55,647 nucleotides of DNA from an uncultured bacterium (GTDB lineage Bacteria > Pseudomonadota > Gammaproteobacteria > Burkholderiales > SG8-39): the NCBI GenBank assembly GCA_965233185.1, contig CBDDSA010000059.1, forward strand, positions 1 through 55,647, in the 5' to 3' direction. Below the pieces are notes generated by a model that was given only the letters and a program-made list of their open reading frames with translations, did not search any database and was not told where the DNA came from. The translations under genes and the position numbers were made by a program. Below are positions 14,347 through 38,032 of the stretch, in pieces. How positions within the stretch are numbered: position 1 is the first letter of the stretch; every line of letters starts with the position of its first letter.

Positions 14347-14350
<4 letters not shown>

Positions 14351-15252
14351 GACCCCGGCCCGATCTTCAGACGATGCGCTTGGGGAACGTTGACGCCGAC
14401 GTTCTGGCCTTCCCCATCCGCTATGCTAGTAGGAACGACGCGAATTTCGGTCGCTGCAGGGCTCGTGGCGATGACCCGGAACTCCACGGCGGCGTGCGCC
14501 GGGTGACCCATGTAGGCCCCTGCGATGTCAACTCGCGCAAGCCCGGCCGAGCTTGACTTTCGATTGCCGCCGAGCTCGAGGATTTTCGGATCGAACGCCA
14601 GCTCCACGGTGGCGCTTTCGAGCACAGAATTTCCGCCTGCATCCAGACCTACCGTCAGGGTGAACTGCTCGCCGACTTTCACCTGGTTGGGTCCGGCGAC
14701 CAGCACCAGCGCTTCCTCCGTGCCGCCGACCGGCGCGATGGAGGACGCGGACAAGGCATCGCGCGACGCACCCGGGGAAAGGTCGAGCCGCTGGGCAACG
14801 GCGAGCTCGAGATTCGCCAAGATGACGTGGTCGTTCCGAATGGCATCGACTCGATACTTCGCTCCGATGGCGTCGCCCGCGCGCACTACGTAGGCCCGGC
14901 TGTCCCGTGTCAGAACCGCGAAGCGCTCCTTGCCGCGCGTCATCCTGCCTACATACGAGAACGGCAATGGCGGTAGCGCCGGTGCCGCTCGCCGCCCGAC
15001 CGCCTGCTCCTCCGTGAAGGGAGGCGGCTTCGGGAGGGGGTCGGCGCGCGGCTTGAAGACATCCACCCTGCTCTCGCGCAGTGCGCGCTGCGCAACCCAA
15101 GCCTTCGTCGAGCCGGCTGCGAGCCACGGCCGTTCCGGCGGCTTCGTGGCGACCTGGGCGGAATCCCCGCCAGCCACCTGCCGCTCTTCGTGCCCGCAGC
15201 CGAGCAGCGTGGCAAGTAGCCCGACGAAAAGGCAGCACTGCCGACGTCTCAC
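14347..15252 (-). CDS. putative lipoprotein: PilP/secretion-accessory-like domain + cohesin-like domain
   Basis: Lipobox LLGC; LPFSYVGRM..YVVRAGDAI..YRVDAI segment; C-terminal GPNQVKVGEQFTLTV..LAFDPKILE cohesin-like fold; GTGA overlap with the upstream gene. Confidence 0.55.
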
Positions 15253-17429
15253 TGTGGCGTCCCGACCGCTTTGGGGAGCGGCTGCCCCTCGCGCAGCTCG
15301 TAGGTCCGGTCCGCCGCAATCGGCCCCTTGAACGACTGGATGAGACCGCTACCCGGCCAGCGCACCTCCAGCACGTCGATCGACGCCGCGCCCGCCAGCC
15401 CGATATGCGGACGCAGGCTGGAGGCGCCGAAGCTGCCCCCGCTGCTTGCGCTTGCGAAGATCTCGCGTGTCTGGCCATTCTCCGTAATGCGGATGCGCAC
15501 ACGCGCTCCGACCGCAAGGCGATTGGCCTTTTCACCTACCAGGCGCAGCTTTATCCAGTGATTGCCGTGTCCCGGATTCCTGAACAGCGCGCTCCAGAAC
15601 CTGTCGGCGGTATAGGCACCGCCAATCATCCCGAATACGTCCTGGGCGCCGTCGTTGTCGAAGTCGCCGAAGGCCACTGCGTGGCCCTTCTGCAGGTGGC
15701 CGAAGCCGCCCGCGGTGGTGACGTTCTGGAAATGCCGACCGCCGGCGTTGCGGAACATCTGGTGGGGCACGATGTTGGTGAGCGGTGCCGCGCCCGTGCC
15801 GAGATAGAAATCCAGCCAGCCATCGTTGTCGAGATCGCCGAAGTTCGCGCCCATGGTCAGCAGCAGCCGATCCAGGCGCGCCTCGCGCGACACGTCGGTG
15901 AAGGTGCCATCGCGGTTGTTGCGGTACAGGCGCGGCCGATCGCCTTTGGCGTTCTTCTTGTCCCCGAGGTATTCACGCACGATGTTCGGCATCGTCGCCC
16001 AGTAGCCCGAGACGAAGATGTCCGGCCAGCCGTCGTTGTCGTAGTCGAAGAACCAGCAGGTAAAGCTCATGTTCGGCTCGGCAACGCCGGCCTGCGCGCT
16101 GGCGTCGATGAACTTGCCGTTGCCGAGGTTACGGAACAGCTTGTTCGGCCCACCCATGATCGAGACGTACAGGTCCGGCCGGCCATCGTTGTCGTAGTCG
16201 TCGCTGGCGACGCCTTTCACCATGCCGTTGAGCTCGATTCCGCTCTGCGCCCCCAGGTCGGTGAAGGTGCCGTTGCGGTTGTTGTGGTAGAGACGGAAGT
16301 TCTTCGCGTCCGCGGGCCATTTCACCTTGTCGCGCACGATCTCGTGGCCGACAAAGAGGTCGAGCCAGCCGTCGCCATCGAAGTCCGCCCAGGCTGCCGT
16401 CTGGCTGGGATGGTAATTCAGCACCCCGGCCTTCGCGGTGACGTCAGTGAAAATGCCGTTGCAGTTGTTGCGCAGGAGCGAGCCCGGATGCCGGCCCTTG
16501 TCGTGCAGCCAGGCGCCGCGCGGGATGAAGACGTCGATGCAACCGTCGTTGTCATAGTCGGCCTGCACCATGTTGAGCCCGCCGGTGATGCCCTTCAGGC
16601 CCGCGCGCTCGGTCATCCGGATAAACGTGCCGTCGCCCTTGTTGCGGAAGTAATTGACCTGCTCCTCGATGCCCATGTGCGAGGTCATCAGATCGAGGTG
16701 CCCGTCGTTGTCGAAGTCCTCGAGCACCGCGCCGCCGGCGCGGCCGAAGACGCTCACGCCGCGGCTCGCCGCGACGTCGCGGAACAGGCCGATGTCGTGG
16801 TCGGATTTGAACGCCTCGGGCGGAATCAGCCAGCGCTTGGGCACGCCCTGTGGCCATTGGCCGAGCACCATGTGCGAGAGATTCAGGAACCAGCGGAAGA
16901 TGAGCGCGTTGTCCGGGTCGACAGGATCGGCGAGTAGCTCGGCGAAGCGCTTGGCAGCCTCGGCGGCGCCGCGCCGTTCCTTGTGGATGCCCTCGTCCTT
17001 GATCGGAAAGATGCAGGCGTCGGCGTTCGGGCTCCAGGTGCAATTCTGCTGCTCGCCGAGGCGGAACCAGGCGAGCGCGAGGTCGCCCTTCAGCGTCTCG
17101 ATGTCGCGCGGCGCAAGCTTGCCGCGATATTCCTCGAGCATTTTCTCGAGCCGCGCGATGCCGGGCTCCGCGGTGCCGCCGGCGACGTACTGCTGGGCGA
17201 GCTCTCGCTGCAGCATCAGCCGCTTGATCGGATCGCGCTCGCTGCCTAGATCGGCCTGCAGGCTGCCGATCTTGCGCTCCTGCAGGTTCCAGGGGTTGTC
17301 CCAGGCCCCCTGCCGCTCGGCAATCGAAGCGAGCTCCTTCACCATGTCGAACCGCGGCCGCGGCCAGGCGAGCGCAAGCACGAGCGCAAGCACCGCCAGC
17401 GCAGCTGCACCGGAGAGAATGACCTTCAC
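15249..17429 (-). CDS. CRTAC1-like FG-GAP repeat / ASPIC-UnbV protein with helical N-terminal domain
   Basis: N-terminal anchor; repeated D(F/Y/L)DNDG.(L/P)D motifs; C-terminal NRLAVGARV..GGSFG..HIGL..VRWP ASPIC/UnbV; GTG start inferred. Confidence 0.85.
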   Translation of the reverse strand: MKVILSGAAALAVLALVLALAWPRPRFDMVKELASIAERQGAWDNPWNLQERKIGSLQADLGSERDPIKRLMLQRELAQQYVAGGTAEPGIARLEKMLEEYRGKLAPRDIETLKGDLALAWFRLGEQQNCTWSPNADACIFPIKDEGIHKERRGAAEAAKRFAELLADPVDPDNALIFRWFLNLSHMVLGQWPQGVPKRWLIPPEAFKSDHDIGLFRDVAASRGVSVFGRAGGAVLEDFDNDGHLDLMTSHMGIEEQVNYFRNKGDGTFIRMTERAGLKGITGGLNMVQADYDNDGCIDVFIPRGAWLHDKGRHPGSLLRNNCNGIFTDVTAKAGVLNYHPSQTAAWADFDGDGWLDLFVGHEIVRDKVKWPADAKNFRLYHNNRNGTFTDLGAQSGIELNGMVKGVASDDYDNDGRPDLYVSIMGGPNKLFRNLGNGKFIDASAQAGVAEPNMSFTCWFFDYDNDGWPDIFVSGYWATMPNIVREYLGDKKNAKGDRPRLYRNNRDGTFTDVSREARLDRLLLTMGANFGDLDNDGWLDFYLGTGAAPLTNIVPHQMFRNAGGRHFQNVTTAGGFGHLQKGHAVAFGDFDNDGAQDVFGMIGGAYTADRFWSALFRNPGHGNHWIKLRLVGEKANRLAVGARVRIRITENGQTREIFASASSGGSFGASSLRPHIGLAGAASIDVLEVRWPGSGLIQSFKGPIAADRTYELREGQPLPKAVGTPQ

Positions 17430-17440
17430 CGGCTTCGATT

Positions 17441-18871
17441 CTACGACTGAGGGACCTGCACCTGGCCCGAAGCTATGGGCAGGGAGAGGATCCACAGGCC
17501 GGCTGCGGTGAAGGCCACCATCAGAACCAGCATCGGTACCTGGCTCCACACCGCCTGCCTTGTGCGCGGGAACACCGCCAGGGCGCGGGCGTGCGCGAGG
17601 TAGACGCTCACCACGTGGCCGACCAGGATCAGCGCCACCTGCGTGTGCCAGACCCATTCCGCCGGAACCACGTAGGGCTCGCCGCCGGAGCGCGCGGTGC
17701 CGAAGATGTTCCAGCCCCAGCCGAAGGGGTCGGAGGCGAGCTGCACGATGGCCGGCGCGTGCCCGACGAGCAAAGTGTAGTAGTGCGTGACGTGGTAGAC
17801 GAACGCGATGGGCACCAGCGCGAAGGTGAACTCCAGCGCCAACTCACGCAGCGGCCGCTCGCTGCCCGCGGCGAGCTTCATGAGCCAGACGAAGGCCAGG
17901 TAGATCGCGAGGTAGAAGAACGGCGACAGGACCAGCATCGCCCACTGCCAGTAGTAATAGAAATCGACCAGGAACAGGTACGGCATGGCGAGCGCCGCTG
18001 CGAGCGGGGGATACAGGTATTTCCAGAAGACCTGCACCCAAGGCAGGGTCTGGTGCACGCCGTCGAAGGCGGTCGAGGACAGCATGAACAGCACCACGAG
18101 CAGCAGGCTCGGGTGATCCGCCGGCTCTTTCAGCAATCCGACGAACGGCTGCCTCAGCCGCAGCCTGCCCGACGCATATTCGAGCGGCGCCATCTTGGCG
18201 ATAAGACGCAGCACCACCGCGAACATTTCGCCGCGGCGGAACCACGCCTCGGCGCCGAAAAGACGCGCCCCCCCAAGGGTGACAAGCGTATAGCCGAGGA
18301 GAAAATAGCCCAGCCCGCGCGGCGAGGCATGCGCGAAAAGCTCGACCCAGATGAACGCCATGTACAGCAACAGCGCCGGGTAGTAGCCGAGCCGGGCAGG
18401 ATAGGCGACCCTGCCCCGGAACGCGCCCGGATAGCGCCATTCGAGCAGATCGCACAGCCCGCGCCACGGGTTTAGCGCGGTATACACGTCGCCGATCAGC
18501 GCGACGACATAGGTGAATCCCAGGACGAAGATAATCCAGAAGAAGGTGACGCTGAAATTGCCGAACGGATTGGGCGTGCCGAAGAGCGCCGTGAGGATCG
18601 TCAGCAGCAGCACCGCCACGCTGAGCGCGCGCAGCACCCCGAGCGCAGGCGCCGCCGTCGACGGCAGGCGGATTTCCACCGTGCGCGCGTTACCCGCGGC
18701 GGTCCTCGCGGTCACGAAATAGCCGACGACCACGAACGACAGGGCGAGCGCGGCCGAAGCGGCGAAGGCGTACATCCAGAACGGCAGCGGCAGCACGTAG
18801 CTCTGCCCGAAGGCATGCGCATTCGCGCCGAGCGGGAGCAAAAGCAGTAGCGTCGCGACCGCGAGCTTCAT
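17441..18871 (-). CDS. polytopic membrane protein (often annotated 'fenitrothion hydrolase' FedB-like)
   Basis: Signal peptide then AHAFGQSYVLPLP; about 10 hydrophobic segments; LNPW, STAFDG, LVPIAFVYHVTHY, SDPFGWGWN, GHVVSV..AH motifs. Confidence 0.65.
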   Translation of the reverse strand: MKLAVATLLLLLPLGANAHAFGQSYVLPLPFWMYAFAASAALALSFVVVGYFVTARTAAGNARTVEIRLPSTAAPALGVLRALSVAVLLLTILTALFGTPNPFGNFSVTFFWIIFVLGFTYVVALIGDVYTALNPWRGLCDLLEWRYPGAFRGRVAYPARLGYYPALLLYMAFIWVELFAHASPRGLGYFLLGYTLVTLGGARLFGAEAWFRRGEMFAVVLRLIAKMAPLEYASGRLRLRQPFVGLLKEPADHPSLLLVVLFMLSSTAFDGVHQTLPWVQVFWKYLYPPLAAALAMPYLFLVDFYYYWQWAMLVLSPFFYLAIYLAFVWLMKLAAGSERPLRELALEFTFALVPIAFVYHVTHYYTLLVGHAPAIVQLASDPFGWGWNIFGTARSGGEPYVVPAEWVWHTQVALILVGHVVSVYLAHARALAVFPRTRQAVWSQVPMLVLMVAFTAAGLWILSLPIASGQVQVPQS

Positions 18872-19313: not shown

Positions 19314-19341
19314 CAAAAGAAAGCCCCGCTCTGGCGGGGCT
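19314..19341 (-). terminator. Rho-independent terminator after the LVIVD array
   Basis: AGCCCCGC-4 nt loop-GCGGGGCT stem (19322-19341) followed on the minus strand by a T-rich tract (TTCTTTT). Confidence 0.8.
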
Positions 19342-19364: not shown

Positions 19365-20939
19365 TCAATTTTGCATGCCGCCCGGCGTCGAGGTGCCCTT
19401 GAATGGCCATACTCCATCCCTGAACTTGAGCACGAGCACGCCATTATCCTGGCAGGTCGTCCAGAGGGTACCGCTCTCCTTGTCCAGATGCACCTGGGCG
19501 GCGCACCAGTCCGGTCCGCCGGGGACCCAGCCGCCGACGCGGTTGTGGTTGGATCCTGCGGTCGGCGTAGTGGTGCCGGCCGGGTTGTAGTAGGCGATTT
19601 CCTTCGGCCGCACGGGGTCGCGGATGTCGAATACGCGGATACCCGAGTTGAAGTATCCGCAAGCCAGGGTCGTCGCATTGTTCCGGTTATCGACGCTGCA
19701 GTAGTGGCTGCCGTAGGTGAAGGTCGAAAGGCCGGCAACATCCGGGCTCACGCTGGAGCAGTTCTTCGGATCGTGCGTCTCGAGCATCAGGCGCGAGACG
19801 ATCTTCGGGTTCTTCTCGTCGCCGATGTCGATGATGCGCGCCATCGGGTACGGCGGCATGCCGGCAGCGCAGGCCGCGGCGTTCTGGGCCGCGGAGGCGA
19901 AGCCGCCCGAGCCGGCCTCGTCGACGAACACGATGTAGCGCTTGCCTTTGATCTTGATATTGATCGTGTGCTGCGCGCCCGAGCCGTCCTTCCACAGCAG
20001 GCTGCTGATGAGGCGCGCCTGCGGATTGGGTCTGCGCTCCTGGATCTCGGTAAGGTCGTAGATCTGCAGGCCGTTGCTCGCCGGGACGCTAGGGTCGGTC
20101 AATCCCGCGCCGAAGCCGAGAATCACGAAGTAGCCGCGCTTGCCGTCCTCGCTGATCGACAGGCCATGCACGCTGGCGATCCCCGGCCGCCAAGTCGACA
20201 GCAGCTTCGGCTTGGTGGGATCGGTCGTGTCGACGGCGTAGTACTGCGCGGCGCGCAGGTCGCCGCCGTAGTAGGTCAGGCCGTCGGGCGCCCAGCTCCC
20301 CTCGTGGCCAATCACCGGCGCTACGAGGCCGCCGTCGGCGCCGGTGCCGACCGGCACGCTGGCGAGAAGCTGCGGCGAGCGGCAGTCCTGCGAGATGTCG
20401 TAGATGTCCACCTCGGGTCCGCCACCGCCGTTCTGGCCGTTATCGGCCGCCAAGAGCTGCCGCCGCTCGTTGACCTTGAGCGACTCCCAAGGGTCGAGCA
20501 TCGAGATGGTCGTGAGGTAGGCGGTCGGCGTGGGATTGCGCTTGTCAGTGAGATCGATCACCGGCACGCCGAACTGCGTCCGGCCGGGCTGGCTCAGCGC
20601 CGGCGAGGCGGTGCCGTGATAACCGCAGTGGCGCACGCCGCCGTTGCGGGTGTCCTGCTTGAATTGCGTCGTCTGCCAGTTCGCGCCATTGCCCTTGAAT
20701 TGGCCGACGAGCTCGAGGTTGCAGTTGAAGCCCTTGAAGCCCGCGGCGCGCATGGCGGCAGGTACCTGGCCCTGCAGCGCCGTTTCCGGCTTGTCGTTCG
20801 ACCCGCAGACCGCCCTGGGTACCGTCAGCGGCGCCGGGCCTTCACCCGAACCCGGCTTGCCGGCGGATGCGACACCTGCACAGCACAGAGCAATCGCGAC
20901 CGCCGTCAGCGGCGCGCGCAACGGCATGGATCTCCTCAT
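19365..20939 (-). CDS. secreted LVIVD-repeat beta-propeller protein, paralog 3
   Basis: GGAGGGG RBS + ATG 20939; signal peptide; VIDLTD..P, IYDIS, ARIIDI.DE.NPK, RVFDIRDP.RPKEIAYY repeats. Confidence 0.82.
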   Translation of the reverse strand: MRRSMPLRAPLTAVAIALCCAGVASAGKPGSGEGPAPLTVPRAVCGSNDKPETALQGQVPAAMRAAGFKGFNCNLELVGQFKGNGANWQTTQFKQDTRNGGVRHCGYHGTASPALSQPGRTQFGVPVIDLTDKRNPTPTAYLTTISMLDPWESLKVNERRQLLAADNGQNGGGGPEVDIYDISQDCRSPQLLASVPVGTGADGGLVAPVIGHEGSWAPDGLTYYGGDLRAAQYYAVDTTDPTKPKLLSTWRPGIASVHGLSISEDGKRGYFVILGFGAGLTDPSVPASNGLQIYDLTEIQERRPNPQARLISSLLWKDGSGAQHTINIKIKGKRYIVFVDEAGSGGFASAAQNAAACAAGMPPYPMARIIDIGDEKNPKIVSRLMLETHDPKNCSSVSPDVAGLSTFTYGSHYCSVDNRNNATTLACGYFNSGIRVFDIRDPVRPKEIAYYNPAGTTTPTAGSNHNRVGGWVPGGPDWCAAQVHLDKESGTLWTTCQDNGVLVLKFRDGVWPFKGTSTPGGMQN

Positions 20940-20962: not shown

Positions 20963-22582
20963 TCAGTTCTGCTCGCCCGGCGGCGTGCGGCTGTCCGGGA
21001 AGGGCCACACGCCTTTCCTGAACTTCAGCATCACCACGCCGTTGTCCTGGCACGTAGTCCAGACCGTGCCCTTCTCCGCATCGAGATGCACCTGGGCCGA
21101 GCACCAGTCCGCGTGTCCGGAGATCCAGCCGCCGGGGCTGTTGTGGTTGGAGCCGGGGCTCGGGGTACGCGTCGCCGGCGGGTTGTAGTAGGCGATCTCC
21201 TTCGGCCGCAGCGGGTCGCGGATATCGAACACCCGCAGGCCCGAGTTGAAATAGCCGCAGGCGAGCGTGGTGGCGTGATCCTTGTTGTCGACGCTGCAGT
21301 AGTGGCTGCCGTAGGTGAAGGTCTGCAAGCCGACGATATCCGGCGCGACGGCCGCGCAGTTGGCCGGATCGTGTGTCTCGAGCATCAGGCGCGACACGAT
21401 CTTTGGATTCTTCTCGTCGTTTACGTCGATGATGCGCGCCATCGGGAACGGCGGGAAGCCCAGGGCGCAGGCCGCGGCATGCTGCGCCGAGTTCGACAGG
21501 CCGCCGGAGCCGGCCTCGTCGACGAATACGACGTACTTCTTGCCCTTGACCCGCACCGGGATGGTGTGCTGCGCGACCGAGCCATCCTTCCACAGAAGCC
21601 GGCTGATCTCCCGCACCTGCGGATTGGGCTTGCGCGCCTGGATTTCCGAGAGGTCGTAGATCAGCAGGCCGTTCGTGGGCGGCGTGGCCGGATCCAGCAC
21701 CGCGGCCGGGCTGGCGCCAAGTCCGCCGAGCGAGACAAAGTAGCCGCGCTTGCCGTCGTCGGAGATGGACATCCCATGGACCGTCGCGATGCCGGTCCTC
21801 CACGTAGCCAGTAGCTTCGGCCGGGTCGGGTCGGTCGTGTCCACGGCGTAGTACTGCGAGTTGCGCAGGTCGCCGCCGTAATAGGTAAGCCCGTCGGGCG
21901 CCCAGCTTCCCTCATGTCCGATGATCGGCGCGACCACTCCGCCGTCCGCGCCGGTGCCCACCGGCATGCTCGCCAGGAGCTGCGGGAAGCGGCAGTCCTG
22001 CGAGATGTCGTAGATGTCCACCTCAGGGCCGCCGCCGCCGTTCTGGCCGTTGTCGGCGCCGAGCAGCTGCCGCCGCTCGTTCACCTTGAGCGACTCCCAC
22101 GGGTCGTGCATCGCCGGCGTGTTGAGGTACGCGGTGATCGTCGGTTTGCCCGGATCGGTCAGGTCCAGCGCCCGCACACCGAAGTTGGTGCGCCCCGGCA
22201 GGCTGCGCGCCGCCGCCGCGGTGCCGTGGTAGCCGCAGATCCGCTGCGTGTTGCCGCGGCCGCGATCGTGGTCCTGGTCGTCATCCTGCCCGTGGCGCAC
22301 GCGCTGCTTGAATTGCGTGGTCTGCCAGTTCGCCCCGTCGCCGCGCGCCTGCCCGACCAGCTCGAGATTGCAGTTGAACCCGTCGAATCCCGCCGCACGC
22401 ATCGCCGCCGGCACCTGCCCCTGCAGCGCGGTCTCCGGCCGGTCGTTCGGCCCGCAGCTCGGCGGCTTGGGCACGGTGAGCGGCACCGGGCCGCCGGGAT
22501 CCTTGTTCTTGTTGTCGGCGCTGACGACGCCGGCACAGGCGAACGCGATGACAAGCGCTTTTGCGAGCGGGGCGGTTTTCAT
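20963..22582 (-). CDS. secreted LVIVD-repeat beta-propeller protein, paralog 2
   Basis: Signal peptide; same motif blocks as paralogs 1 and 3. Confidence 0.85.
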   Translation of the reverse strand: MKTAPLAKALVIAFACAGVVSADNKNKDPGGPVPLTVPKPPSCGPNDRPETALQGQVPAAMRAAGFDGFNCNLELVGQARGDGANWQTTQFKQRVRHGQDDDQDHDRGRGNTQRICGYHGTAAAARSLPGRTNFGVRALDLTDPGKPTITAYLNTPAMHDPWESLKVNERRQLLGADNGQNGGGGPEVDIYDISQDCRFPQLLASMPVGTGADGGVVAPIIGHEGSWAPDGLTYYGGDLRNSQYYAVDTTDPTRPKLLATWRTGIATVHGMSISDDGKRGYFVSLGGLGASPAAVLDPATPPTNGLLIYDLSEIQARKPNPQVREISRLLWKDGSVAQHTIPVRVKGKKYVVFVDEAGSGGLSNSAQHAAACALGFPPFPMARIIDVNDEKNPKIVSRLMLETHDPANCAAVAPDIVGLQTFTYGSHYCSVDNKDHATTLACGYFNSGLRVFDIRDPLRPKEIAYYNPPATRTPSPGSNHNSPGGWISGHADWCSAQVHLDAEKGTVWTTCQDNGVVMLKFRKGVWPFPDSRTPPGEQN

Positions 22583-24210: not shown

Positions 24211-24212
24211 GG

Positions 24213-24280
24213 CTAGTTCTGCTCTCCTCCTCGGGTCCCGCTGTCGGGGACGGCCAGACGCCTTTTCTGAACTTCAGCAG
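24213..24280 (-). pseudogene. 3' remnant of a fourth LVIVD paralog
   Basis: Minus strand reads LLKFRKGVWP, then after a 1-nt loss PDSGTRGGEQN-TAG, matching the paralog 2 tail LKFRKGVWPFPDSRTPPGEQN; 2 nt before the next ATG, as between paralogs 1 and 2. Confidence 0.8.
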
Positions 24281-24378
24281 CGAAGTTGTGCTGCTTTTTG
24301 CAGCATTATTCCCGCGCCGACTTACATGGCACTTACGATTGTCGTCAATCTAAAGCGCAGCGCCCGTTGAATTGAATC

Positions 24379-24413
24379 CAAACGATCATGAACTGAGAGC
24401 AAACGCTCATGAA
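24379..24413. promoter_or_regulatory. 14-bp direct repeat with 21-bp period in the divergent promoter region
   Basis: CAAACGATCATGAA (24379-24392) and CAAACGCTCATGAA (24400-24413), one mismatch, in an AT-rich gap between two divergent operons. Confidence 0.5.
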
Positions 24414-30072: not shown

Positions 30073-32901
30073 GTGGCCGAAAATGGCCTTCCACGCAAGA
30101 TCGTGTATGTGCCGGCCGTCGGGCCGCGGCTGAGGAAGCTGCTGTTCGCGGTATTCGCGCTGTTCGCAGTGCTGGCCGTGAACTCGGTCTACTTGGGCAC
30201 CATCACCTGGTTCGAGTGGCAGTCGGGCAAGACGCTGCAGGACTACTTCTACCAGCTGATGTTCTTGCTGCATCTCGCGCTCGGCCTGTTGATCATCGTG
30301 CCGGTGATCGTGTTCGGCGCGCTCCACTTGAAGAACGCCTGGCCGCGCCCGAACCGGCGCGCGGTACGCGCCGGGATCGCGCTCTTTACGTGCGCGCTCC
30401 TGCTTCTCGCCTCCGGGGTCGTGCTCACGCGCCTGGGTGCCTTCGAGGTGCGCGACCCGGCGGTGCGCGCGCTCGCGTACTGGCTGCATGTCATCACGCC
30501 GCTCGCGGTTGCGTGGCTGTTCGTGCTGCACCGGCTTGCCGGCAAGCGCATCAACTGGCGGCTCGGCGCACGCTGGGCGGGATTCGCCGGCGCCTTTGCG
30601 CTCGTGATGCTGGTCGTGCAGGCGCAGGACCCGCGCCGCTGGAACGAGAAGGGGCCGGCCTCCGGCGAAAAGTATTACTTCCCGTCCCTCGCGCGCACCG
30701 CCACCGGCAATTTCATTCCGGCACGCACGCTGCAGATGGACGGGTACTGCCGCGAGTGCCATCAGGACATCCACGAGAAGTGGAGCCACAGCGCGCACCG
30801 ATTCAGCTCGTTCAGCAACCCCGCGTATCTGTTCTCGGTACGCGAGACGCGCCGCGTAGCCAAGGAGCGCGACGGGAACCTGAACGCCTCGCGCTGGTGC
30901 GCGGGCTGCCATGACCCGGTGCCGTTCTTCTCGGGCGCCTTCGAGGACGCGCGCTTCGACAACCCAGACTACGACCTCGCCAAGGACCCGATGGCAGGCG
31001 CCGGCATTACCTGCACCACCTGCCACGCCGTCACGCACGTGAACTCGCCGCGCGGCAACGCCGATTTCACCATCGAGGAGCCGCTGCACTACCCCTTCGC
31101 CTTCAGCGACAACCCGGCGCTTGCCTGGCTCAACCGGCAGCTGGTCAAGTCCAAGCCGGCGTTCCACAAGAAGACCTTCCTGAAGGAGCACCACCGCAGC
31201 GCCGAGTTCTGTTCGACTTGCCACAAGGTGCACCTGCCGGAACAGCTCAACAAGTACAAGTGGGTGCGCGGGCAGAACCACTACGATACTTACCACCTCA
31301 GCGGCGTGTCGGGCCACGGCGTGCAGTCGTTCTACTATCCGCCGAAGGCGACGCACAACTGCAATGCCTGCCATATGCCGCTTGCGCGCTCGAACGATTT
31401 CGGCGCCCGAAGGTTCGACGAGAGCGGCGAGCTGAAGGTGCACGACCACCAATTCCCGTCGGCCAATACCGCGCTGCCCCACATGCTCGGCTACCCGGCG
31501 TGGGTCAATGAGGCACACCGCAAGTTCCTCGAGGGCGTGGTTCGCGTGGACCTGTTCGGCCTCAAGGAGGGCGGCACCATCGACGGCAAGCTGCACGCGC
31601 CGCTGCGCCCGGGGGTGCCGGTGCTCCAGCCGGGCAAGACCTATCTCCTGGAGACGGTCGTGCGTACGGTCAAGATGGGCCACCCACTTACACAAGGCAC
31701 GGTCGACTCCAACGAGCTGTGGCTGGAGATCATCGTCAAAAGCGGCCATCGGGTGATCGGGCGCAGCGGCGGCATGGACGGCGACGGAGCGGTCGATCCA
31801 TGGTCGCATTTCGTCAACGTGTACATGCTCGACCGCAATGGCAACCGCATCGACCGGCGCAACCCGCAGGACATCTTCACGCCGCTGTACAACAACCAGA
31901 TACCGCCCGGCGCGGCCGACACCGTGCACTACAGCTTCACCGTGCCGCAGCAGGCGCGCGCGCCGCTGACCATCGAGGCACGGCTGCACTATCGCAAGTT
32001 CGACGCAACGTATGTGCGGCACTTCATGCGCGACCCGCAGGCGAAGAACCGCCTGCCGGTGATCACCATGGCGGCCGACCGCGTCACATTCCCGATCAGC
32101 GGAGGCGAGGCAAGCAACCCGGCGTCGAAGATCGAGCTCTGGCAGCGCTGGAACGACTACGGCATCGGCCTGTTCCGCAAAGGGGGACGCGGCGAGCTAC
32201 GCCAGGCCGATGCCGCTTTTGCCGAGGTCGAGAAGCTCGGGCGCGGCGACGGCGCGCTCAACGTCGCGCGCGTCGCCTTGCGCGGGGGCCGGCTGGACGA
32301 GGCCGCCGCGGCGCTGGAGCGCGCGGCCAAGGTCCGAATCCCCGCCCCGGCATGGACCATCACGTGGTTCACGGGCCTGGTGAACAGGCAGAACGGCAGG
32401 CTCGACCAGGCGATCGCCGATTTTCGCGCAGTGATCGGCACGCAGTTCGCCGAGGCGCGCAGGCGCGAATTCGACTTCAGCCAGGACTACACCGCGCTTG
32501 CGCAGCTCGGCCAGACGCTCTTTGAGCGCGCGAAGATAGAGCGCGCGCCGCAGGCCCAGGCGCGCCGCGAGGCGCTGCTGGGGGAAGCGGCGCAGTGGTT
32601 CGAAAAGGCATTGGTGCTCGACTCCGAGGACCTCGCCTCTCATTACAACCTGTCCCTCATCGCAGGCCTCCTTGGCGACGAGGCGCGCGCCGAGAGGCAC
32701 CGCGCGCTGTACGCGCGCTACAAGCCTGACGAGAACGCGCGCGACACCACCGTGGCGAAGCATCGCGCGGCCAATCCTGCCGCCAACCATGCCGCCGAGC
32801 CGGTGGTGATCTACGCGTTACAGCGCCCCGGGTACTACACCGCGGACGTCGGTCCCATCCTGTCGGCCCCCGTTCCGCTGGCAAGCAGCTATGGCAAGTA
32901 G
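30073..32901 (+). CDS. membrane-anchored pentaheme cytochrome c with C-terminal TPR domain
   Basis: About 5 N-terminal TM helices; CRECH, CAGCH, CTTCH, CSTCH, CNACH; RWNDYGIG followed by TPR repeats; AGGAG RBS + GTG. Confidence 0.88.
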   Translation: MAENGLPRKIVYVPAVGPRLRKLLFAVFALFAVLAVNSVYLGTITWFEWQSGKTLQDYFYQLMFLLHLALGLLIIVPVIVFGALHLKNAWPRPNRRAVRAGIALFTCALLLLASGVVLTRLGAFEVRDPAVRALAYWLHVITPLAVAWLFVLHRLAGKRINWRLGARWAGFAGAFALVMLVVQAQDPRRWNEKGPASGEKYYFPSLARTATGNFIPARTLQMDGYCRECHQDIHEKWSHSAHRFSSFSNPAYLFSVRETRRVAKERDGNLNASRWCAGCHDPVPFFSGAFEDARFDNPDYDLAKDPMAGAGITCTTCHAVTHVNSPRGNADFTIEEPLHYPFAFSDNPALAWLNRQLVKSKPAFHKKTFLKEHHRSAEFCSTCHKVHLPEQLNKYKWVRGQNHYDTYHLSGVSGHGVQSFYYPPKATHNCNACHMPLARSNDFGARRFDESGELKVHDHQFPSANTALPHMLGYPAWVNEAHRKFLEGVVRVDLFGLKEGGTIDGKLHAPLRPGVPVLQPGKTYLLETVVRTVKMGHPLTQGTVDSNELWLEIIVKSGHRVIGRSGGMDGDGAVDPWSHFVNVYMLDRNGNRIDRRNPQDIFTPLYNNQIPPGAADTVHYSFTVPQQARAPLTIEARLHYRKFDATYVRHFMRDPQAKNRLPVITMAADRVTFPISGGEASNPASKIELWQRWNDYGIGLFRKGGRGELRQADAAFAEVEKLGRGDGALNVARVALRGGRLDEAAAALERAAKVRIPAPAWTITWFTGLVNRQNGRLDQAIADFRAVIGTQFAEARRREFDFSQDYTALAQLGQTLFERAKIERAPQAQARREALLGEAAQWFEKALVLDSEDLASHYNLSLIAGLLGDEARAERHRALYARYKPDENARDTTVAKHRAANPAANHAAEPVVIYALQRPGYYTADVGPILSAPVPLASSYGK

Positions 32902-34729
32902 GAACGAAGCCGAAGAACTGGTAGATGCCGACGACCGGCGCATCGGCCGGGCCTTCGGTATTTCGCTCTGGGTGATCGGCGCTGCCGGCTTGCTGGTCAT
33001 CATCGGCTACCTCATCAGCACGGCGCCGAAGGCGGTCGTGCCCATCAAGGAAACGCTGATCCGGGCGCCGCTGCCGCCGGACGCGCCGCCAGTCGCAGCG
33101 GCGCCCGCACCGTTCCGCGACGTGACCCGCGCGTCCGGCGTACGCTTCGTGCACCGCAACGGCGCCTACGGAGGGAAGCTGCTCCCCGAGACCATGGGGG
33201 GCGGCGTCGCGGTGCTCGACGTGCGCGGCAACGGCCGGGCCGACCTCGTGTTCGTAAACTCAGGCTCCTGGACCCCCGAGAAAGTCGGCGTTGCCGACCC
33301 GACGCTGCACTTGTATCTCAACGACGGCAAGGGGCAGTTCCGCGACGCGACCGCCGGTTCCGGCCTGGATGCGGAGCGCCTCTACGGCATGGGCATCGCC
33401 ACGGGCGACTTCGACAACGACGGTTTCGACGACCTCCTCTTGACCGGCGTCGGCGGGGTGCGCCTGTTCCGTAACCTTTCCGGCAGCGGCAGATTCGCCG
33501 ACGTCACGCGCGAGGCCGGCATCGCCTCGGCAGCCGAGGACTGGTACACCTGTGCAGCCTTCGTCGATACCGACAATGATGGTTGGCTCGACATCTTCCT
33601 CTGCCGCTATGTGCAATGGTCGCGCGAGATCGACCGCGCCATCGATTTCCGCCTGACCGGCGTCGGCCGCGCCTACGGCCAGCCGACCAGCTTCGAGGGC
33701 ACCTCGCCGCGGCTGCTGCGCAATCTGGGCAACCGCAGGTTCGTCGACGTTAGCGAGAAGGCCGGCATGCGTGTGCTGAACCCGGCTACCGGCCAACCCG
33801 TCGCCAAGTCCCTCGGCGTGCTACCCGTGGACGTCGACCGCGACGGCTGGATCGATCTCGTGGTGGCGAACGACACGGTGCGCAACTTCCTGTTCCTCAA
33901 CCGCAAGGGCGTGTTCGAGGAGGCCGGGATGAAAAGCGGCCTGGCATACGACGTGAACGGCAATGCACGCGGCGCGATGGGTATCGACGCCGCGAGGCTG
34001 GGCGACGCCGGGCAGCTCGCCGTCGCCATGGGCAACTTCGCGAACGAGATGTCTTCGTTCTACGTCGGCGGGTCCGGCGCGCGCTTTGACGACCACTCTA
34101 TAGTCTCGGGCATCGGCCCGGCGACGCGCCGCGCGCTCACCTTCGGCGTGCTGTTCCTGGATTACGACCTCGACGGCCGCGCGGATCTGTTCCACGCCAA
34201 CGGTCACATCGAGGACGAGATCAGCAAGGTGCAGGCGAGCCAGCAGTATGCGCAGCCGATGCAGCTCTTCTGGAACTGCGGCGAGGCGTGCCCGCAGCCT
34301 TACGTGGAGGTTCCGCAGAAGGAGCGCGGCGCGCTGGCGCAGGCGATCGTCGGCCGCGGCGCCGCCTATGCCGACCTCGACGGGGACGGCGACCTCGACC
34401 TGGTCGTGACGCAGATCGGTCGGCCGGCGCTCGTGCTGCGCAACGACCAAGCGAGCGGCCATCACTGGCTGCGCGTGCGCCTGGAAGGCTCGGGCAAGGT
34501 CAATCGCGACGCCATCGGCAGCTGGATCGAGGTCACCGCCGGCGGCACCACGCGTCGCGGGCAGGTGATGCCCACGCGCAGCTATCTCTCGCAGGTCGAG
34601 CGCACGCTGACGTTCGGCCTCGGCACGGCGACCCGCGTGGACAATCTCACCGTGCACTGGAGCGACGGCACCCGCCAGGCGGTTGAAGTACCCGGGGTAG
34701 ACCGGGTGCTTTCGATCAGGAAGCCGTAG
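32891..34729 (+). CDS. CRTAC1-like FG-GAP/ASPIC-UnbV protein, N-terminally membrane anchored
   Basis: TM anchor; LPETMGGGVA, GDFDNDG, DVDRDGW.D..VANDT, GAMG, GRGAAYADLDGDGDLD, NRDAIG..SYLSQ..FGLG. Confidence 0.88.
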   Translation: MASRNEAEELVDADDRRIGRAFGISLWVIGAAGLLVIIGYLISTAPKAVVPIKETLIRAPLPPDAPPVAAAPAPFRDVTRASGVRFVHRNGAYGGKLLPETMGGGVAVLDVRGNGRADLVFVNSGSWTPEKVGVADPTLHLYLNDGKGQFRDATAGSGLDAERLYGMGIATGDFDNDGFDDLLLTGVGGVRLFRNLSGSGRFADVTREAGIASAAEDWYTCAAFVDTDNDGWLDIFLCRYVQWSREIDRAIDFRLTGVGRAYGQPTSFEGTSPRLLRNLGNRRFVDVSEKAGMRVLNPATGQPVAKSLGVLPVDVDRDGWIDLVVANDTVRNFLFLNRKGVFEEAGMKSGLAYDVNGNARGAMGIDAARLGDAGQLAVAMGNFANEMSSFYVGGSGARFDDHSIVSGIGPATRRALTFGVLFLDYDLDGRADLFHANGHIEDEISKVQASQQYAQPMQLFWNCGEACPQPYVEVPQKERGALAQAIVGRGAAYADLDGDGDLDLVVTQIGRPALVLRNDQASGHHWLRVRLEGSGKVNRDAIGSWIEVTAGGTTRRGQVMPTRSYLSQVERTLTFGLGTATRVDNLTVHWSDGTRQAVEVPGVDRVLSIRKP

Positions 34730-36338
34730 GAACGCGCGCGGCCGCAGGGCTGCGCGGGTAGAACACAGGATCCTCGGTCGGCCAGCCGCGACGGGCGGGC
34801 TTGCGGCTTTGATACAGCCGCAGGTTCGTCGCAAGGAATCCCTGGTCAACCGGGGTTTTCGAGCGCTGGTAGCCGATGATCGTCTCCTGCTGCAGCTTCG
34901 TAGCCTCGTCGAAGCGGCGGTTCTCGGCGAGCGCCATGGCATAGGTCTGCCCCACCGCCAGGCTGCGCGTGGCCTCGAACAGCTCCTTCGCGAGCGCGAG
35001 GGCGCGCTTGGCGTCGCGCGCCGCCGCCTGCGGCGCCGTGGCGAGCACGCGGGCGAGCGAATTCATCAGCTCGCCGCTGCGCGGCTCGGCGGCGAGCGCA
35101 TCCTCTAGCACCCCGCGCGCTTCCACGTAGCGGCCGGATTTGATCAGCGCCATGCCGAGCGAGTGCGCCACCCTGGCCGAATAGCCGCCGCCATCCAGTG
35201 CGCGGCGGTAATGCTTCGCCGCCTCATTCGCCGCACCCGCGCGCAACTCGAGATCGGCGAGGTACACGAGAGCCTGGACGTTGTCCGGATCGCGACGCAC
35301 CGCGGCGAGGTAGTGCTCCAGCGCAGCCTTGTCGTCTCCGAGCCGGTCGTGCACCACCGCAAGGCTGAAATGCGCCACAGCATTGCCGTCATCCAGCCGC
35401 ACCGACTCGGTCAGCTCGTCGCGCGCTTCGGACACCTTGCCGAGGTTGGCGAGCGAGATCCCCAGGTTTGCGCGCGCCTCGGCGCTGCCGGGAGCCGAGT
35501 GCACCGCCGCCCGGAAGGCCTGCTCGGCGAGGTCGAAGCGACCCTCCTTGCCGTAGCGCTGGCCGCGGCGCAGAAGCACGCGGGACACCACGACCTTGGC
35601 GCTCATCAGGTCGACCGTCGGGTCGGCGACGCCGGGCTCGGGGCCGTTGGGCACGTGCCGCGCGAGGTTCGCCTGCGCGTTCGCCGTGTCACCCAGCCCG
35701 CGGTAAGCCATCGCGAGCGGATGCCGCAGGCGGCTCGCGTTTGGCCAGAGCCTGAGCGCGCCTTCAAGGTTCTCGACCGCCTGCAGGTAGCGCTTTTGCG
35801 CGAGCGCCGTCTTGCCCAGGCCGGCGAGCGCCGCTGCTTGCGCTTCCTTATTGCTTTTTGCCTTTTCGAACAAGGCTTGCGCCTTGTCCATTTCGCCGCT
35901 CTGGAAGTAAAGCTGCGCGAGGTAGATCTGAGTCGGCGCATCGTCCTGGTTGAGCGCGTGGACCGCCTCGAAGGTTCTCAGCGCCTCCGGAAGTCTGCTC
36001 GCATCGGCGTACAGATGCGCAAGGAGGTACGGCCAGCGCGTGTCTCGCGGGGCGAGCTTGCGGGCGTTGAGGTACGCAGCTTCGGCCGGGGTCGGCAAGT
36101 CCTGCGCGTGGTACACCATCGCCAGCTCGCCGTAGGCGGCGGCGAGCTCGGCGCGGGCGGCCGAGCGCTGCTTCACGGTATCGAACTGCACATGCGCTTC
36201 GGCGATGCGCGCTCGCACCGCCGCCTCGAGGTTGCTCGTATCCGTGGGCGGAATCGGTATCAGGTCCCCGACGGGAGCGTCACAGCCCGCGGCCAGCAGC
36301 CACAGCACGAGGCCCACAACACGAAAAGCGGCTGTCAT
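34716..36338 (-). CDS. TPR-repeat lipoprotein
   Basis: Lipobox AAGC; many TPR-like helical repeats; NSLARVLAT..RDAKRALALA C-terminus; ATGA overlap with the upstream gene. Confidence 0.85.
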   Translation of the reverse strand: MTAAFRVVGLVLWLLAAGCDAPVGDLIPIPPTDTSNLEAAVRARIAEAHVQFDTVKQRSAARAELAAAYGELAMVYHAQDLPTPAEAAYLNARKLAPRDTRWPYLLAHLYADASRLPEALRTFEAVHALNQDDAPTQIYLAQLYFQSGEMDKAQALFEKAKSNKEAQAAALAGLGKTALAQKRYLQAVENLEGALRLWPNASRLRHPLAMAYRGLGDTANAQANLARHVPNGPEPGVADPTVDLMSAKVVVSRVLLRRGQRYGKEGRFDLAEQAFRAAVHSAPGSAEARANLGISLANLGKVSEARDELTESVRLDDGNAVAHFSLAVVHDRLGDDKAALEHYLAAVRRDPDNVQALVYLADLELRAGAANEAAKHYRRALDGGGYSARVAHSLGMALIKSGRYVEARGVLEDALAAEPRSGELMNSLARVLATAPQAAARDAKRALALAKELFEATRSLAVGQTYAMALAENRRFDEATKLQQETIIGYQRSKTPVDQGFLATNLRLYQSRKPARRGWPTEDPVFYPRSPAAARVPTAS

Positions 36339-38032
36339 TTGCCCTGGCCTTGAACCAGCGTTGCATAGGTGCGCAACGGCGGTGCGGCAAACTGCTCCCT
36401 CGAGCCGTCGGGCCAGTGCACCAATAGCGCCTCGATCTCGCTCGCTGCGCCCAACCCGACCAGCACGCGCGGGTCGTTGGCCGACAGGTAGCTACCGTCG
36501 GCGCGCACGCGGCGCCAAAGCGTGGGCGCGCCCTTGCGCCGGATCTCCACCCTCGCGCCGTAGGCATCGCGACGACCCGTAAGCAGGCGCAGGCCAAGCC
36601 AGTTGCGCGCCGCCCCGACGCCATTGCGGAAGATGCGCAGCCGGCCGTTGTTGTTGCTCACCACGAAGTCGCTGGCCCCGTCGTTGTCGAGGTCGCCCAC
36701 GGCGAGGCCGCGGCCCACCTCCGACAGCGCAAAGGCCGGTCCGGCGCTGGCGGTGACCTCCTCGAAGCGGCCGTTGCCCAGGTTGCGCAGCAGCTGCTTG
36801 ACCTGGTGCAGCGGCAGCGGGTCGCGCGCGCGCACCAGCTTCTCGATAACATGCACCGCGCCGTTGGTAATCACCAGGTCCAGCCAACCGTCGTTGTCGT
36901 AATCGAAGAAGGCGGTGCCGAACCCGGTGTAGGGCGTCGTCGGCAGGTAGAGCCCGACCGAAGCGCTGCGATCCTCAAACTGACCCTTGCCGAGGTTGAC
37001 GAATAGCGTCGCCTTCTCGTGGGTCAGGTGGGTAACGAGCACGTCCTCGGTGCCGTTACCGTCATAGTCGGCGGCATCGATGCCCATGCCGGCTTCGGGC
37101 GCACCGTCGGCATTCACCGCGGCACCGCGCAGCTCGGCCTCATTGCGGAAGGTGCCGTTCTTCTGGTTGATCCAAAGATGGTTCGGGTTGCCATCATTAG
37201 CAACGAACAGATCCTGCCAGCCGTCGCCGTCGAGGTCCGCGGCGATCACGCCTAGCCCGTTGCCGAATGCCCGCGTGATTCCCGCCTTGACCGACACGTC
37301 CTCGAAGCGGCCGTTGCCGCGATTGCGGTAGAGAATGCCCGGGACGGCCGGATAAGTCGTCGGTGCGCAATAGTCGCGCGCACTGGTGTAGTTATGGCAC
37401 TTCTTGTCCTTCTGCACCGAGTAGTCGACGTAGTTGGCCACGTAAAGGTCGAGCAGCCCGTCGCGGTCGAAGTCAAAGAAGGTTGCGCTCGAGCCCCAGC
37501 GTCCGGCGCCGGCAACACCCGCCGCGCGCGTCGAGTCGACGAAAGTGCCGTCACCATTGTTGCGGAACAGCTGGCTGGGCGAGCCGAAGTGCGTGATGAA
37601 CACGTCGACGTCACCGTCGTTGTCGATGTCGCCGTAGGCAATGCCCATGCCGTAGCCGTGCGAGCAGAGGCTGGATTTTTCCGTGACGTCGGTAAAGCGC
37701 GCCGCGCTCGGCGAGTCGTTGCGGTACAGGCGCGCCCCGCACGAGCGTGGCTTTTGCGGCTGCTGCTCGCCGAGCGCGCCGCCTTGAAGTGCGAGGATAT
37801 CCAGCCGGCCGTCGTTGTCATAGTCGAGGAGCGCCAAGCCGGAACCGATGATCTCTGAAAAATAATACTGGCCGCTCATCCCATTGACATGTCTGAATTC
37901 GACCCCCGCCGCGTCGGTGACATCGACGAAAATTTCCCGTGCCACCTCGGGTTTCGGCGCTGCGGGTTCAGGGCCGCAAGCCGACAGCGACAGGACCAAG
38001 GCCAATGGGACAATGCAGCTCACTCGAATCAT
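36335..38032 (-). CDS. CRTAC1-like FG-GAP/ASPIC-UnbV lipoprotein
   Basis: Lipobox LSAC; EIIGSGLALLDYDNDG, YGMG, DFDRDG.LD.YVANY, EAGMG, GRGLAVGDLDNDG, GSYLSA..VGLG. Confidence 0.88.
   Translation of the reverse strand: MIRVSCIVPLALVLSLSACGPEPAAPKPEVAREIFVDVTDAAGVEFRHVNGMSGQYYFSEIIGSGLALLDYDNDGRLDILALQGGALGEQQPQKPRSCGARLYRNDSPSAARFTDVTEKSSLCSHGYGMGIAYGDIDNDGDVDVFITHFGSPSQLFRNNGDGTFVDSTRAAGVAGAGRWGSSATFFDFDRDGLLDLYVANYVDYSVQKDKKCHNYTSARDYCAPTTYPAVPGILYRNRGNGRFEDVSVKAGITRAFGNGLGVIAADLDGDGWQDLFVANDGNPNHLWINQKNGTFRNEAELRGAAVNADGAPEAGMGIDAADYDGNGTEDVLVTHLTHEKATLFVNLGKGQFEDRSASVGLYLPTTPYTGFGTAFFDYDNDGWLDLVITNGAVHVIEKLVRARDPLPLHQVKQLLRNLGNGRFEEVTASAGPAFALSEVGRGLAVGDLDNDGASDFVVSNNNGRLRIFRNGVGAARNWLGLRLLTGRRDAYGARVEIRRKGAPTLWRRVRADGSYLSANDPRVLVGLGAASEIEALLVHWPDGSREQFAAPPLRTYATLVQGQGK

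Follow-up and report, generated by a model that had tools for sequence, protein, structure and literature searches.

Does a compact block of cell-envelope genes that was inserted as one piece also function as one piece? The question is raised by an island of approximately 23.7 kb (positions 14347-38032) within a 55,647-nt stretch of DNA (the window; contig CBDDSA010000059.1 of GenBank assembly GCA_965233185.1) from an uncultured bacterium of the Burkholderiales lineage SG8-39. The island carries 14 genes, here named g01-g14, among them a membrane multiheme cytochrome (g11), four propeller proteins of the CRTAC1/ASPIC-UnbV family (g02, g10, g12 and g14) and three propellers that resemble a solved hydrolase (g05-g07). 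A first-pass annotation, made from the sequence alone, had joined the two divergent arms of this block into a single periplasmic or surface complex coupling substrate conversion to membrane electron transfer. The reading that we favour, and to which we give about even chances, is that of a composite island of separable cell-envelope modules rather than one proven machine.

In such a composite, a first module would comprise g09-g12, probably together with g13-g14, around a g11-g12 core conserved across phyla, and a second would comprise g08 and g07-g01 and be confined to one soil lineage. The two would have in common their CRTAC1-type calcium propellers, each fused to or encoded beside a TPR module. 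In the first module g11, seated in the inner membrane, would carry electrons between the quinone pool and the periplasm with its five c-type hemes, and a propeller docked beside the heme chain would bind or convert a substrate. The second may carry out periplasmic ester (or amide) hydrolysis, with g04 and g03 as an accessory pair. The modules would have been joined in this lineage, with neither needing the other elsewhere.

A cytochrome and propeller gene pair conserved across phyla

The genes g11 and g12 are a deeply conserved two-gene core across phyla. Neighbourhoods were counted in the best 80 loci of g11 homologs, and gene order in the 67 of these whose downstream sequence extends for 2 kb or more; a CRTAC1 gene was called g12-like when it scored above 250 bits on the same strand downstream of the cytochrome gene. 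Such a gene follows the g11 homolog in 60 of the 67 loci (within 700 nt in 56), in at least five phyla. When open reading frames (ORFs) were clustered over all 80 loci, the only widely common neighbours were CRTAC1 (72/80) and g10-like genes (22/80). By their record titles the loci belong to Planctomycetota (46), Verrucomicrobiota (12), Pseudomonadota (10), Acidobacteriota (6) and others (6). These title-based tallies are approximate, since some contigs of metagenome-assembled genomes (MAGs) that carry the cytochrome (L024, L029, L040 and L068) bear implausible organism labels, namely Akkermansia muciniphila, Bifidobacterium sp. and Candidatus Kuenenia stuttgartiensis.

Every one of the 8000 candidates scored was a match to g11, and proteins whose names point to Planctomycetes or Phycisphaerae were 68-70% identical to it over residues 190-700 (511 residues). 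At least 575 cluster representatives (50% identity) match this same region at E ≤ 1e-30; most are 850-1000 aa long with a match that begins near residue 200, and this similarity in size and match position argues that the architecture of g11 is common to the family. Among 600 pattern-matched stretches in species genomes at least 584 encode a g11 relative; cultured carriers there include Wenzhouxiangella sediminis XDB06, Stieleria magnilauensis TBK1r and Rhodopirellula europaea 6C. Orthologs were found in 22 of 201 sampled Planctomycetota genomes, and the window's own class has 13 carriers among 300 genomes, scattered over families. A second and more distant family, 35-40% identical to g11 from approximately residue 225 onward, is present in about 20 of the 201 Planctomycetota genomes, and one Stieleria genome (G315) possesses two full-length g11-like genes (58% and 53% identity).

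As for the other right-arm genes, the complete order g09, g10, g11, g12 is repeated in L019 and L042; L023 holds g09, g10 and g11 before its contig ends, L031 holds g10, g11 and g12, and full-length g10 orthologs lie upstream of the cytochrome in all four. L018 and L022 have a g09 homolog that is on the opposite strand or several kb distant, and a g09-type amidase is nearby in 5 of the 80 cytochrome loci, from several phyla. The g14/g13-like pair lies beside the cytochrome core in the same layout as in the island in L005, and in other layouts in L010, L012 and L026.

The first-pass annotation had named structure prediction of the cytochrome with its candidate partners as a check, and for g12 a confident interface was obtained. 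Three runs with g11 residues 490-942 and g12 residues 70-612 gave ipSAE values of 0.80, 0.82 and 0.81, versus 0.00 for the best of three controls; the benchmark mark for this score (which 116 of 157 solved complexes attained, as did 2 of 215 mismatched pairs) is a rough guide only, own alignments having been used. Between runs, at least 89% of contacts are the same, with a partner pLDDT of at least 90. In the predicted complex the TPR domain of g11, with its concave face, and the beta-sandwich of g11, with its edge, would clamp the g12 propeller, the contacts lying on the TPR helices and involving invariant residues of both partners (G775 and L777 of g11; T329, G350, G357, G407, R413 and S450 of g12). 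Orthologs of g12 share a cytoplasmic motif, DDxxIGRAF (g12 residues 14-25), just before a single transmembrane (TM) helix that leads into the propeller. We know of no solved TPR-CRTAC1 complex. The sole CRTAC1 structure that we found is a single chain (PDB 9ETN).

Insertion of the block and the relation of its two arms

In three of five same-genus genomes (G004, G302 and G005) the genes flanking the island, dusA and a class II aldolase gene, are spaced by 39-62 bp on one strand, versus 23.7 kb in the window; in the other two, dusA and the aldolase gene lie on different contigs (G011) or no dusA match was found (G263). Because the flanks adjoin in these three congeners the block is a true insertion, and it was probably acquired horizontally as an island. 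The cytochrome was detected in 0 of 20 relatives, 12 of them of the same genus. All four CRTAC1 copies of the 4.09-Mb draft genome sit in the island, and the other island families are likewise confined to it, save for weak CN_hydrolase, TPR and g01 matches elsewhere. The presence of every CRTAC1 copy inside, together with the insertion relative to congeners, makes the grouping of these genes more than chance. Pfam and NCBIfam scans found no integrase among the 14 genes, and no direct or inverted repeat of 9 nt or longer is common to the two island borders.

That the whole block is a single insertion, with one divergent spacer common to both arms, also speaks for the strongest alternative, in which all 14 genes serve one pathway and the products of left-arm hydrolases are oxidised or reduced by the cytochrome/CRTAC1 complex. 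The same divergent arrangement is in fact seen outside the window: in L144 (g10, g09 and g08 divergent from three propellers), in L145 (g09 and g08 likewise), and in an NCBI MAG, where four accession steps separate the propeller (HSU76004.1) from the cytochrome (HSU76008.1) and both are given the same longest contig of 14,711 nt. The cytochrome, propeller and g03 clusters also give equal longest-contig values (27282, 21848 and 26758), which we take to mean shared contigs. Furthermore, CRTAC1/TPR pairs lie beside propeller arrays in rearranged orders in six loci, with g13 and g14 homologs paired in four (L092, L094, L116 and L130) and the contig ending inside the g14 homolog in two (L095 and L098, where the g13 side lies beyond the contig); of all the observations, these rearranged neighbourhoods point most strongly to a real functional link inside the lineage. 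The genome with L005 has propeller homologs too, on other contigs. Co-occurrence of the arms elsewhere, which the first-pass annotation had made the test of its proposal, is thus observed.

Against a single pathway, however, stands the distribution of the arms outside these close relatives. The left-arm genes g01 and g03-g08 occur in 0 of the 80 cytochrome loci, and none of 10 genomes of the same class that possess a g11 ortholog has a propeller homolog (E ≤ 1e-20). A propeller homolog is also missing in three of five further cytochrome carriers, the Oceanococcus carrier having distant copies on other contigs only; conversely, g11 is present in 0 of 3 relatives that bear propeller homologs. 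Both arms are found together only within one narrow lineage of soil Burkholderiales, the cytochrome module standing alone elsewhere, and since every such case is from a close relative (60-88% identity) common ancestry can account for them. The neighbourhood survey proposed in the first pass upheld the cytochrome-CRTAC1 pair and, outside these close relatives, did not join it to the left arm; we consider a pathway of all 14 genes unlikely, and the claim of one complex made from both arms is not sustained by these counts.

Predicted roles of the cytochrome and the left-arm propellers

Returning to separable modules, the first of them centres on a protein with five TM helices, five c-heme sites, a beta-sandwich and a C-terminal TPR domain. 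The five CxxCH motifs of g11 are all invariant in a 17-sequence alignment, which makes it a multiheme c-type cytochrome, and it scores 26.9 bits with the Pfam Cytochrome_C554 model (cut-off 20.8). In the same alignment H67 and H85 of predicted TM helix 2 and H139 and H153 of helix 4 are invariant, and from these four His residues we infer that the TM helices carry two b-type hemes. Two His pairs on two helices, 14-18 residues apart, resemble the pattern of di-heme b subunits. No Pfam match to NapC/NrfH- or cytochrome-b-type quinol dehydrogenases was found in g11. In an AlphaFold2 (AF2) model the beta-sandwich (490-675) and the TPR domain (689-907) are predicted with confidence, and Foldseek searches with this model returned mostly TPR proteins.

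A bolder version of this module, which we put forward tentatively and hold to be rather doubtful, is that g11-g12 is the founding example of a widespread respiratory module, in which a fused b/c cytochrome docks a CRTAC1 calcium propeller via its TPR domain, making the propeller the subunit for catalysis or substrate binding in a periplasmic, quinone-coupled oxidoreductase. If the quinone coupling is real, this would be an unrecognised branch of the respiratory chain in common soil and marine heterotrophs; if the oxidoreductase role is real, it would be the first biochemical role for the CRTAC1/ASPIC-UnbV family, the vertebrate protein included. The 'TPR module plus CRTAC1 propeller' could then be a general docking unit, reused by other enzymes such as, apparently, the Sb-PTE-like hydrolases of the island. 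Planctomycetota, Verrucomicrobiota, Acidobacteriota and some Proteobacteria are rich in CRTAC1/ASPIC-UnbV proteins, and a partner cytochrome with this many cluster representatives (at least 575), a fixed gene order and a predicted docking mode provide an experimental handle on what they do.

It is also conceivable, and in our view somewhat less probable than a 14-gene pathway, that g11 is itself the enzyme, in the manner of nitrite or sulfite reductases or of MccSep, and that CRTAC1 acts as scaffold, stabiliser or substrate-capture lectin. The heme domain of g11 is weakly akin to the pentaheme c552/ExtKL group, of which MccSep is reported as a catalytic member in a preprint (bioRxiv 10.1101/2025.11.18.688581). 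In addition, g11 has many invariant periplasmic His residues beyond the ten needed for five bis-His hemes, as well as invariant beta-sandwich motifs, and g10 shows a weak NCBIfam match to beta-propeller lectins (E 5.1e-5). Yet the 17-sequence alignment holds no invariant Cys outside the five CxxCH and no CxxCK motif, so that the MccSep- and NrfA-type active-site signatures, as given in the same preprint, are absent in g11; the ExtKL/MccSep model (NCBIfam NF040886) gives g11 only 15.6 bits versus a cut-off of 250.

Integrins and lectins are the best-known proteins with FG-GAP propellers, which counts for a last alternative: that the CRTAC1/TPR proteins are adhesin-like surface or matrix-binding proteins whose linkage to the cytochrome and hydrolases on a mobile island is incidental. 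This we regard as quite improbable since, even though human CRTAC1 belongs to the extracellular matrix (PDB 9ETN title) and no catalytic site is evident in g12, an incidental linkage would not preserve one gene order in at least five phyla (60 of 67 loci) or yield a confident and conserved predicted interface, and g12 and g02 are TM-anchored and g10, g13 and g14 are lipoproteins, rather than secreted proteins with cell-surface sorting signals; the earlier contention that these are envelope proteins and not merely adhesins is borne out.

The second module is built around g05-g07, which are mutually 70-73% identical. Full-length homology was found between g07 and the 'haloalkylphosphorus hydrolase' of PDB 5HRM/5IOJ, Sb-PTE (phmmer E 2.2e-22, residues 39-518 versus 2-477), and it is on account of this homology to 5HRM that we assign g05-g07 as propellers. 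The alignment is sparse, with few identical positions and frequent gaps. In the columns that we take to hold the Sb-PTE metal ligands, E161, H273 and H429 align exactly and H341 is one column off, and the full set of candidate ligand residues (E161, H222/E223, H273, H341, D357/E358 and H429) is invariant in 12 propeller sequences. Sb-PTE possesses a binuclear metal centre in a seven-bladed propeller, according to the title of Mabanglo 2016 (cited in PMC11656708). Homology to a binuclear-metal hydrolase makes the 'substrate conversion' of the first-pass annotation plausible for the left arm, and g05-g07, perhaps with g08, would be periplasmic metal-dependent hydrolases. The LVIVD label that the three propellers had been given (PF08309) was rejected: the Pfam model is silent on them even at E ≤ 5, although a precomputed PF08309 match exists for 4 of 120 listed homologs, and a weak choice-of-anchor-B match was seen (E 0.0021). 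In total, then, the seven propellers originally proposed stand, four by FG-GAP/ASPIC-UnbV models and three by homology to 5HRM.

We surveyed the propeller neighbourhoods in 64 soil metagenome loci, 18 of them of at least 8 kb. A DUF6765 gene (as g08) is beside the propeller arrays in 18 of the 64, a g13 homolog in 6 and a g14 homolog in 6. The order of tandem propellers (2-5 copies), cupredoxin-like gene, g03, CRTAC1_a (g02) and g01 is repeated in L124, L142 and L153; in L090 the g01 homolog follows the g03 homolog rather than CRTAC1_a. Propeller homologs are rare among other genomes of the order (3/300), and distant ones (33-45% identity; L085-L087 and L158-L162) have no adjoining island genes. 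The left arm presents relatives of a flame-retardant-degrading phosphotriesterase in large natural arrays with conserved accessories, which bears on the origin of xenobiotic-degrading enzymes.

The accessories themselves are less readily classified. g08 belongs to DUF6765 (PF20551, 56.6 bits versus a cut-off of 26.6); it has no solved relative by sequence at E ≤ 1, and its link to S1/P1 nuclease or phospholipase C is a naming lead in the ESM Atlas only. g04, previously described as a His-only cupredoxin, has three conserved His within LH[VL]HGY and E-x-H in 8 sequences, with no conserved Cys or Met, so the His-only part of that description stands; its scores are below cut-off both for Cupredoxin_1 (E 0.0042, 17.5 bits versus 27) and for nitrosocyanin (E 1.6e-4). 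We rejected a blue-copper cupredoxin for lack of these scores and ligands, and g04 may still have a cupredoxin fold. g03 gave no Pfam or NCBIfam match, and 120 of its 120 listed homologs are 'hypothetical' or without a name. Its AF2 model is a confident fold (pLDDT 82.6) with no Foldseek match at E ≤ 0.001; the best VIA-align Z of 7.2, on helical bundles, is at noise level for helical proteins and was discarded as a match to a solved fold. g01 has a weak cohesin-like C-terminal part (E 0.0011, below cut-off).

Genes resembling other metallohydrolases also precede the pair of cupredoxin-like gene and g03: in G012 (L088/L090) these are two Amidohydro_3 genes, along with a propeller, and in G016 (L089) the gene of a 749-aa protein with a weak Peptidase_M19 match. 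In G313 (L157) the pair and a divergent propeller are 5 kb apart. Because of this company we read g04/g03 as an accessory of periplasmic metallohydrolases, probably a metal-handling or membrane pair.

Several results weigh against the roles outlined here. For the cytochrome, residues 1-196 of g11 gave no Pfam match even at E ≤ 5 and no PDB match, so that b hemes and quinone coupling are read from the His pattern; the AF2 heme domain is poor (pLDDT below 50 over residues 190-480), and resemblance to the pentaheme protein 5ZE8 is weak (profile E 0.0016; Foldseek E 2.2e-4, with a TM-score of 0.17 normalised to the model and 0.36 to 5ZE8). As to its partner, a downstream CRTAC1 is missing in 7 of the 67 loci, g12 orthologs have one invariant His, no invariant Cys and nothing like a redox cofactor site, and binding of g11 to g12 is a prediction backed by model confidence. 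For the left arm, the Sb-PTE ligands are assumed to be Glu201, His258, His317, His389, Glu407 and His475, and two of these six are matched only approximately, by D357/E358 and H222/E223 in nearby, unaligned positions. Among the 18 propeller loci that reach 8 kb, 10 contain no other island gene. Finally, a look-up of sequencing runs with this DNA gave a single soil DNA run (share 0.08) and no RNA run.

Gene map and comparison with known systems

The coordinates of the island genes and their surroundings are listed in the table below. The left arm is a minus-strand operon running from g07 through g06, g05, g04, g03 and g02 to g01 (24210 down to 14347), with intergenic gaps of at most 83 nt and 4-nt overlaps at three junctions; since a terminator-like hairpin, itself only a consensus match, lies between g05 and g04, it may consist of two transcription units. 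The right arm contains the plus-strand operon g08-g12 (24489-34729) and the convergent minus-strand pair g14-g13 (38032-34716).

Features of the island and its flanks, in window coordinates
Feature	Position	Strand	Basis
dusA, tRNA-dihydrouridine synthase, left flank, outside island	13301..14350	+	Pfam Dus 5.3e-82
g01, lipoprotein, 301 aa, last gene of left operon	14347..15252	-	lipobox LLGC
g02, CRTAC1_a, TM anchor	15249..17429	-	FG-GAP_3 1.1e-48, UnbV_ASPIC 1.9e-11; GTG start at 17429
g03, polytopic membrane protein, 476 aa, FedA-like	17441..18871	-	ESM Atlas feature score
g04, membrane-anchored cupredoxin-like three-His protein, 137 aa	18868..19281	-	sub-cut-off cupredoxin matches, conserved His
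Hairpin resembling a terminator (8-bp stem, T-rich tail), between g05 and g04	19322..19341	-	consensus match only
g05, putative propeller hydrolase paralog C (Sb-PTE-like)	19365..20939	-	ATG at 20939 preceded by GGGAGGGG
g06, putative propeller hydrolase paralog B (Sb-PTE-like)	20963..22582	-	paralog identity
g07, putative propeller hydrolase paralog A (Sb-PTE-like)	22585..24210	-	phmmer vs PDB 5HRM/5IOJ
Divergent low-GC spacer with two CTTAY-N6-CTTAY direct repeats	24211..24488	.	GC 0.54
g08, secreted DUF6765 protein	24489..25757	+	PF20551 4.2e-15
g09, cytoplasmic CN_hydrolase, amidase branch	25757..26734	+	PF00795 4.9e-38
g10, lipoprotein: TPR, FG-GAP propeller, UnbV_ASPIC, C-terminal part without family	26715..30002	+	Pfam
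g11, membrane multiheme cytochrome with TPR domain	30073..32901	+	CxxCH motifs, alignment, model
g12, CRTAC1_b, N-terminally anchored propeller	32891..34729	+	Pfam; conserved partner of g11
g13, TPR lipoprotein	34716..36338	-	multiple TPR families
g14, CRTAC1_c lipoprotein	36335..38032	-	FG-GAP_3 7.1e-56, UnbV_ASPIC 5e-15; lipobox signal from ATG at 38032
Class II aldolase, right flank, outside island	38109..38888	+	Pfam Aldolase_II 2.1e-50

Most of the gene-level description given in the first-pass annotation was confirmed. None of the 14 genes is interrupted by an internal stop. N-termini assigned by eye from the translations show lipoboxes in g01, g10, g13 and g14 and a signal peptide or TM anchor in g02-g08, g11 and g12, and neither in g09, so that all but g09 carry an envelope-targeting N-terminus as described. 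A longer g14 ORF runs to 38089. Pfam finds TPRs in g10, g11 and g13, and these three TPR proteins, like the five-CxxCH cytochrome, are as first reported. The nitrilase label of g09 holds at the level of the CN_hydrolase (nitrilase) superfamily (PF00795, 131.4 bits versus a cut-off of 23.2), with the Glu, Lys and Cys motifs FPE, RKV and CYD visible in the translation and no NCBIfam equivalog match; its best PDB matches are formamidases (1.3e-25), with aliphatic amidase also close. FG-GAP_3 (E 9.5e-31 to 7.1e-56) and UnbV_ASPIC (27.1-67.3 bits versus a cut-off of 23.4) are above the Pfam cut-offs in g02, g10, g12 and g14, all of which are therefore CRTAC1/ASPIC-UnbV family members. The CRTAC1-TPR association takes the form of a fusion in g10 and of a neighbouring TPR gene for g12 (g11) and g14 (g13); g02 has, rather than a TPR partner, an unassigned helical N-terminal region (about 220-244 aa) without a Pfam family. 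The C-terminal part of g10 (approximately 430 aa) likewise matches no Pfam family.

The two divergent arms around an AT-rich region, and the convergent CRTAC1-TPR pair, also proved as described, the spacer having a GC content of 0.54 versus 0.674 for the island. CTTAY-N6-CTTAY direct repeats occur in this spacer only, at 24321-24336 and 24447-24462 (2 observed in the window versus 0.03 expected), and the 11-bp distance between half-sites would suit a winged-helix response regulator. The repeat is also present in the equivalent spacer of L131 and L152, and not in 13 other spacers checked. As a general regulatory site it was rejected: with one mismatch allowed it is found in only 1 of 14 DUF6765-propeller spacers of other loci.

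Elsewhere in the window, a PrpD-like 2-methylcitrate dehydratase gene adjoins that of a 917-aa aconitase (positions 1-4560), as in propionate catabolism; a small protein at 5727-6248 matches the Host_attach and bacterial eRF1-like family 12 (baeRF) domains; and a glucose/sorbosone dehydrogenase-like propeller gene lies beside a TonB-dependent receptor gene at 6771-10205 on the minus strand.

Among known systems, the enzyme Sb-PTE of Sphingobium sp. TCM1 (5HRM/5IOJ) is the nearest to g05-g07, which are alike in full-length alignment, residues at or near the presumed ligand columns, secretion and, by homology, the seven-bladed propeller fold, and unlike in that genes of their type stand in tandem arrays of 2-5 with DUF6765, cupredoxin-like and FedA-like neighbours. 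FedA is known to us from the annotation 'fenitrothion hydrolase', e.g. for BCAM2542 in PMC3417382; g03 resembles it by features alone, through ESM Atlas clusters carrying this automatic name (feature score 0.97), and not by alignment. The amidases AmiF and AmiE (PDB 5G3O, 2DYU and 2UXY) match g09 at 1.3e-25 to 6e-17, and g09 differs from them by its linkage to a periplasmic cytochrome operon.

For g11 two groups invite comparison. With the pentaheme group of T. tepidum c552 (5ZE8), ExtKL/MccSep and Gsu2801, described in PMC11976967 and bioRxiv 10.1101/2025.11.18.688581, it has five c hemes and a weak resemblance of sequence and fold in common; unlike them it adds a five-helix membrane domain, a beta-sandwich and TPRs, has no Cys/Sec active site and scores far below the cut-offs. 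By its presumed function, that of a membrane heme protein linking the quinone pool to periplasmic partners, it may be likened to NapC/NrfH/CymA/TorC and to NarI/FdnI. It differs from these in that the NapC type has one TM helix, the NarI type is without c hemes and none has TPRs, and it has no sequence match to them.

No function for bacterial CRTAC1/ASPIC-UnbV proteins, and no description of a membrane multiheme cytochrome that bears TPRs and has a CRTAC1 propeller as partner, was found in the literature searched (subscription papers and supplements being outside its scope); apart from mentions in gene lists it yielded a paper on homologs of the anammox hydrazine synthase (HZS), and a preprint on peat multihemes contained nothing pertinent. 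In that nearest paper, on HZS homologs, a CRTAC1 gene has been placed between the genes of these homologs, which are periplasmic heme and propeller subunits, in Planctomycetota and others (PMC12758564). As described there, those clusters are set apart from g11 by their HZS alpha and beta-gamma partners and by having no TPR cytochrome. With vertebrate CRTAC1 (9ETN) and the bacterial family at large, the island copies have the FG-GAP propeller and UnbV_ASPIC domain in common, and they differ in being membrane-anchored or lipoproteins that are paired or fused with a TPR module (or, in g02, with the helical region). The parts of the island thus belong to known families, and it is the pairing of cytochrome and CRTAC1 that is new to the literature searched.

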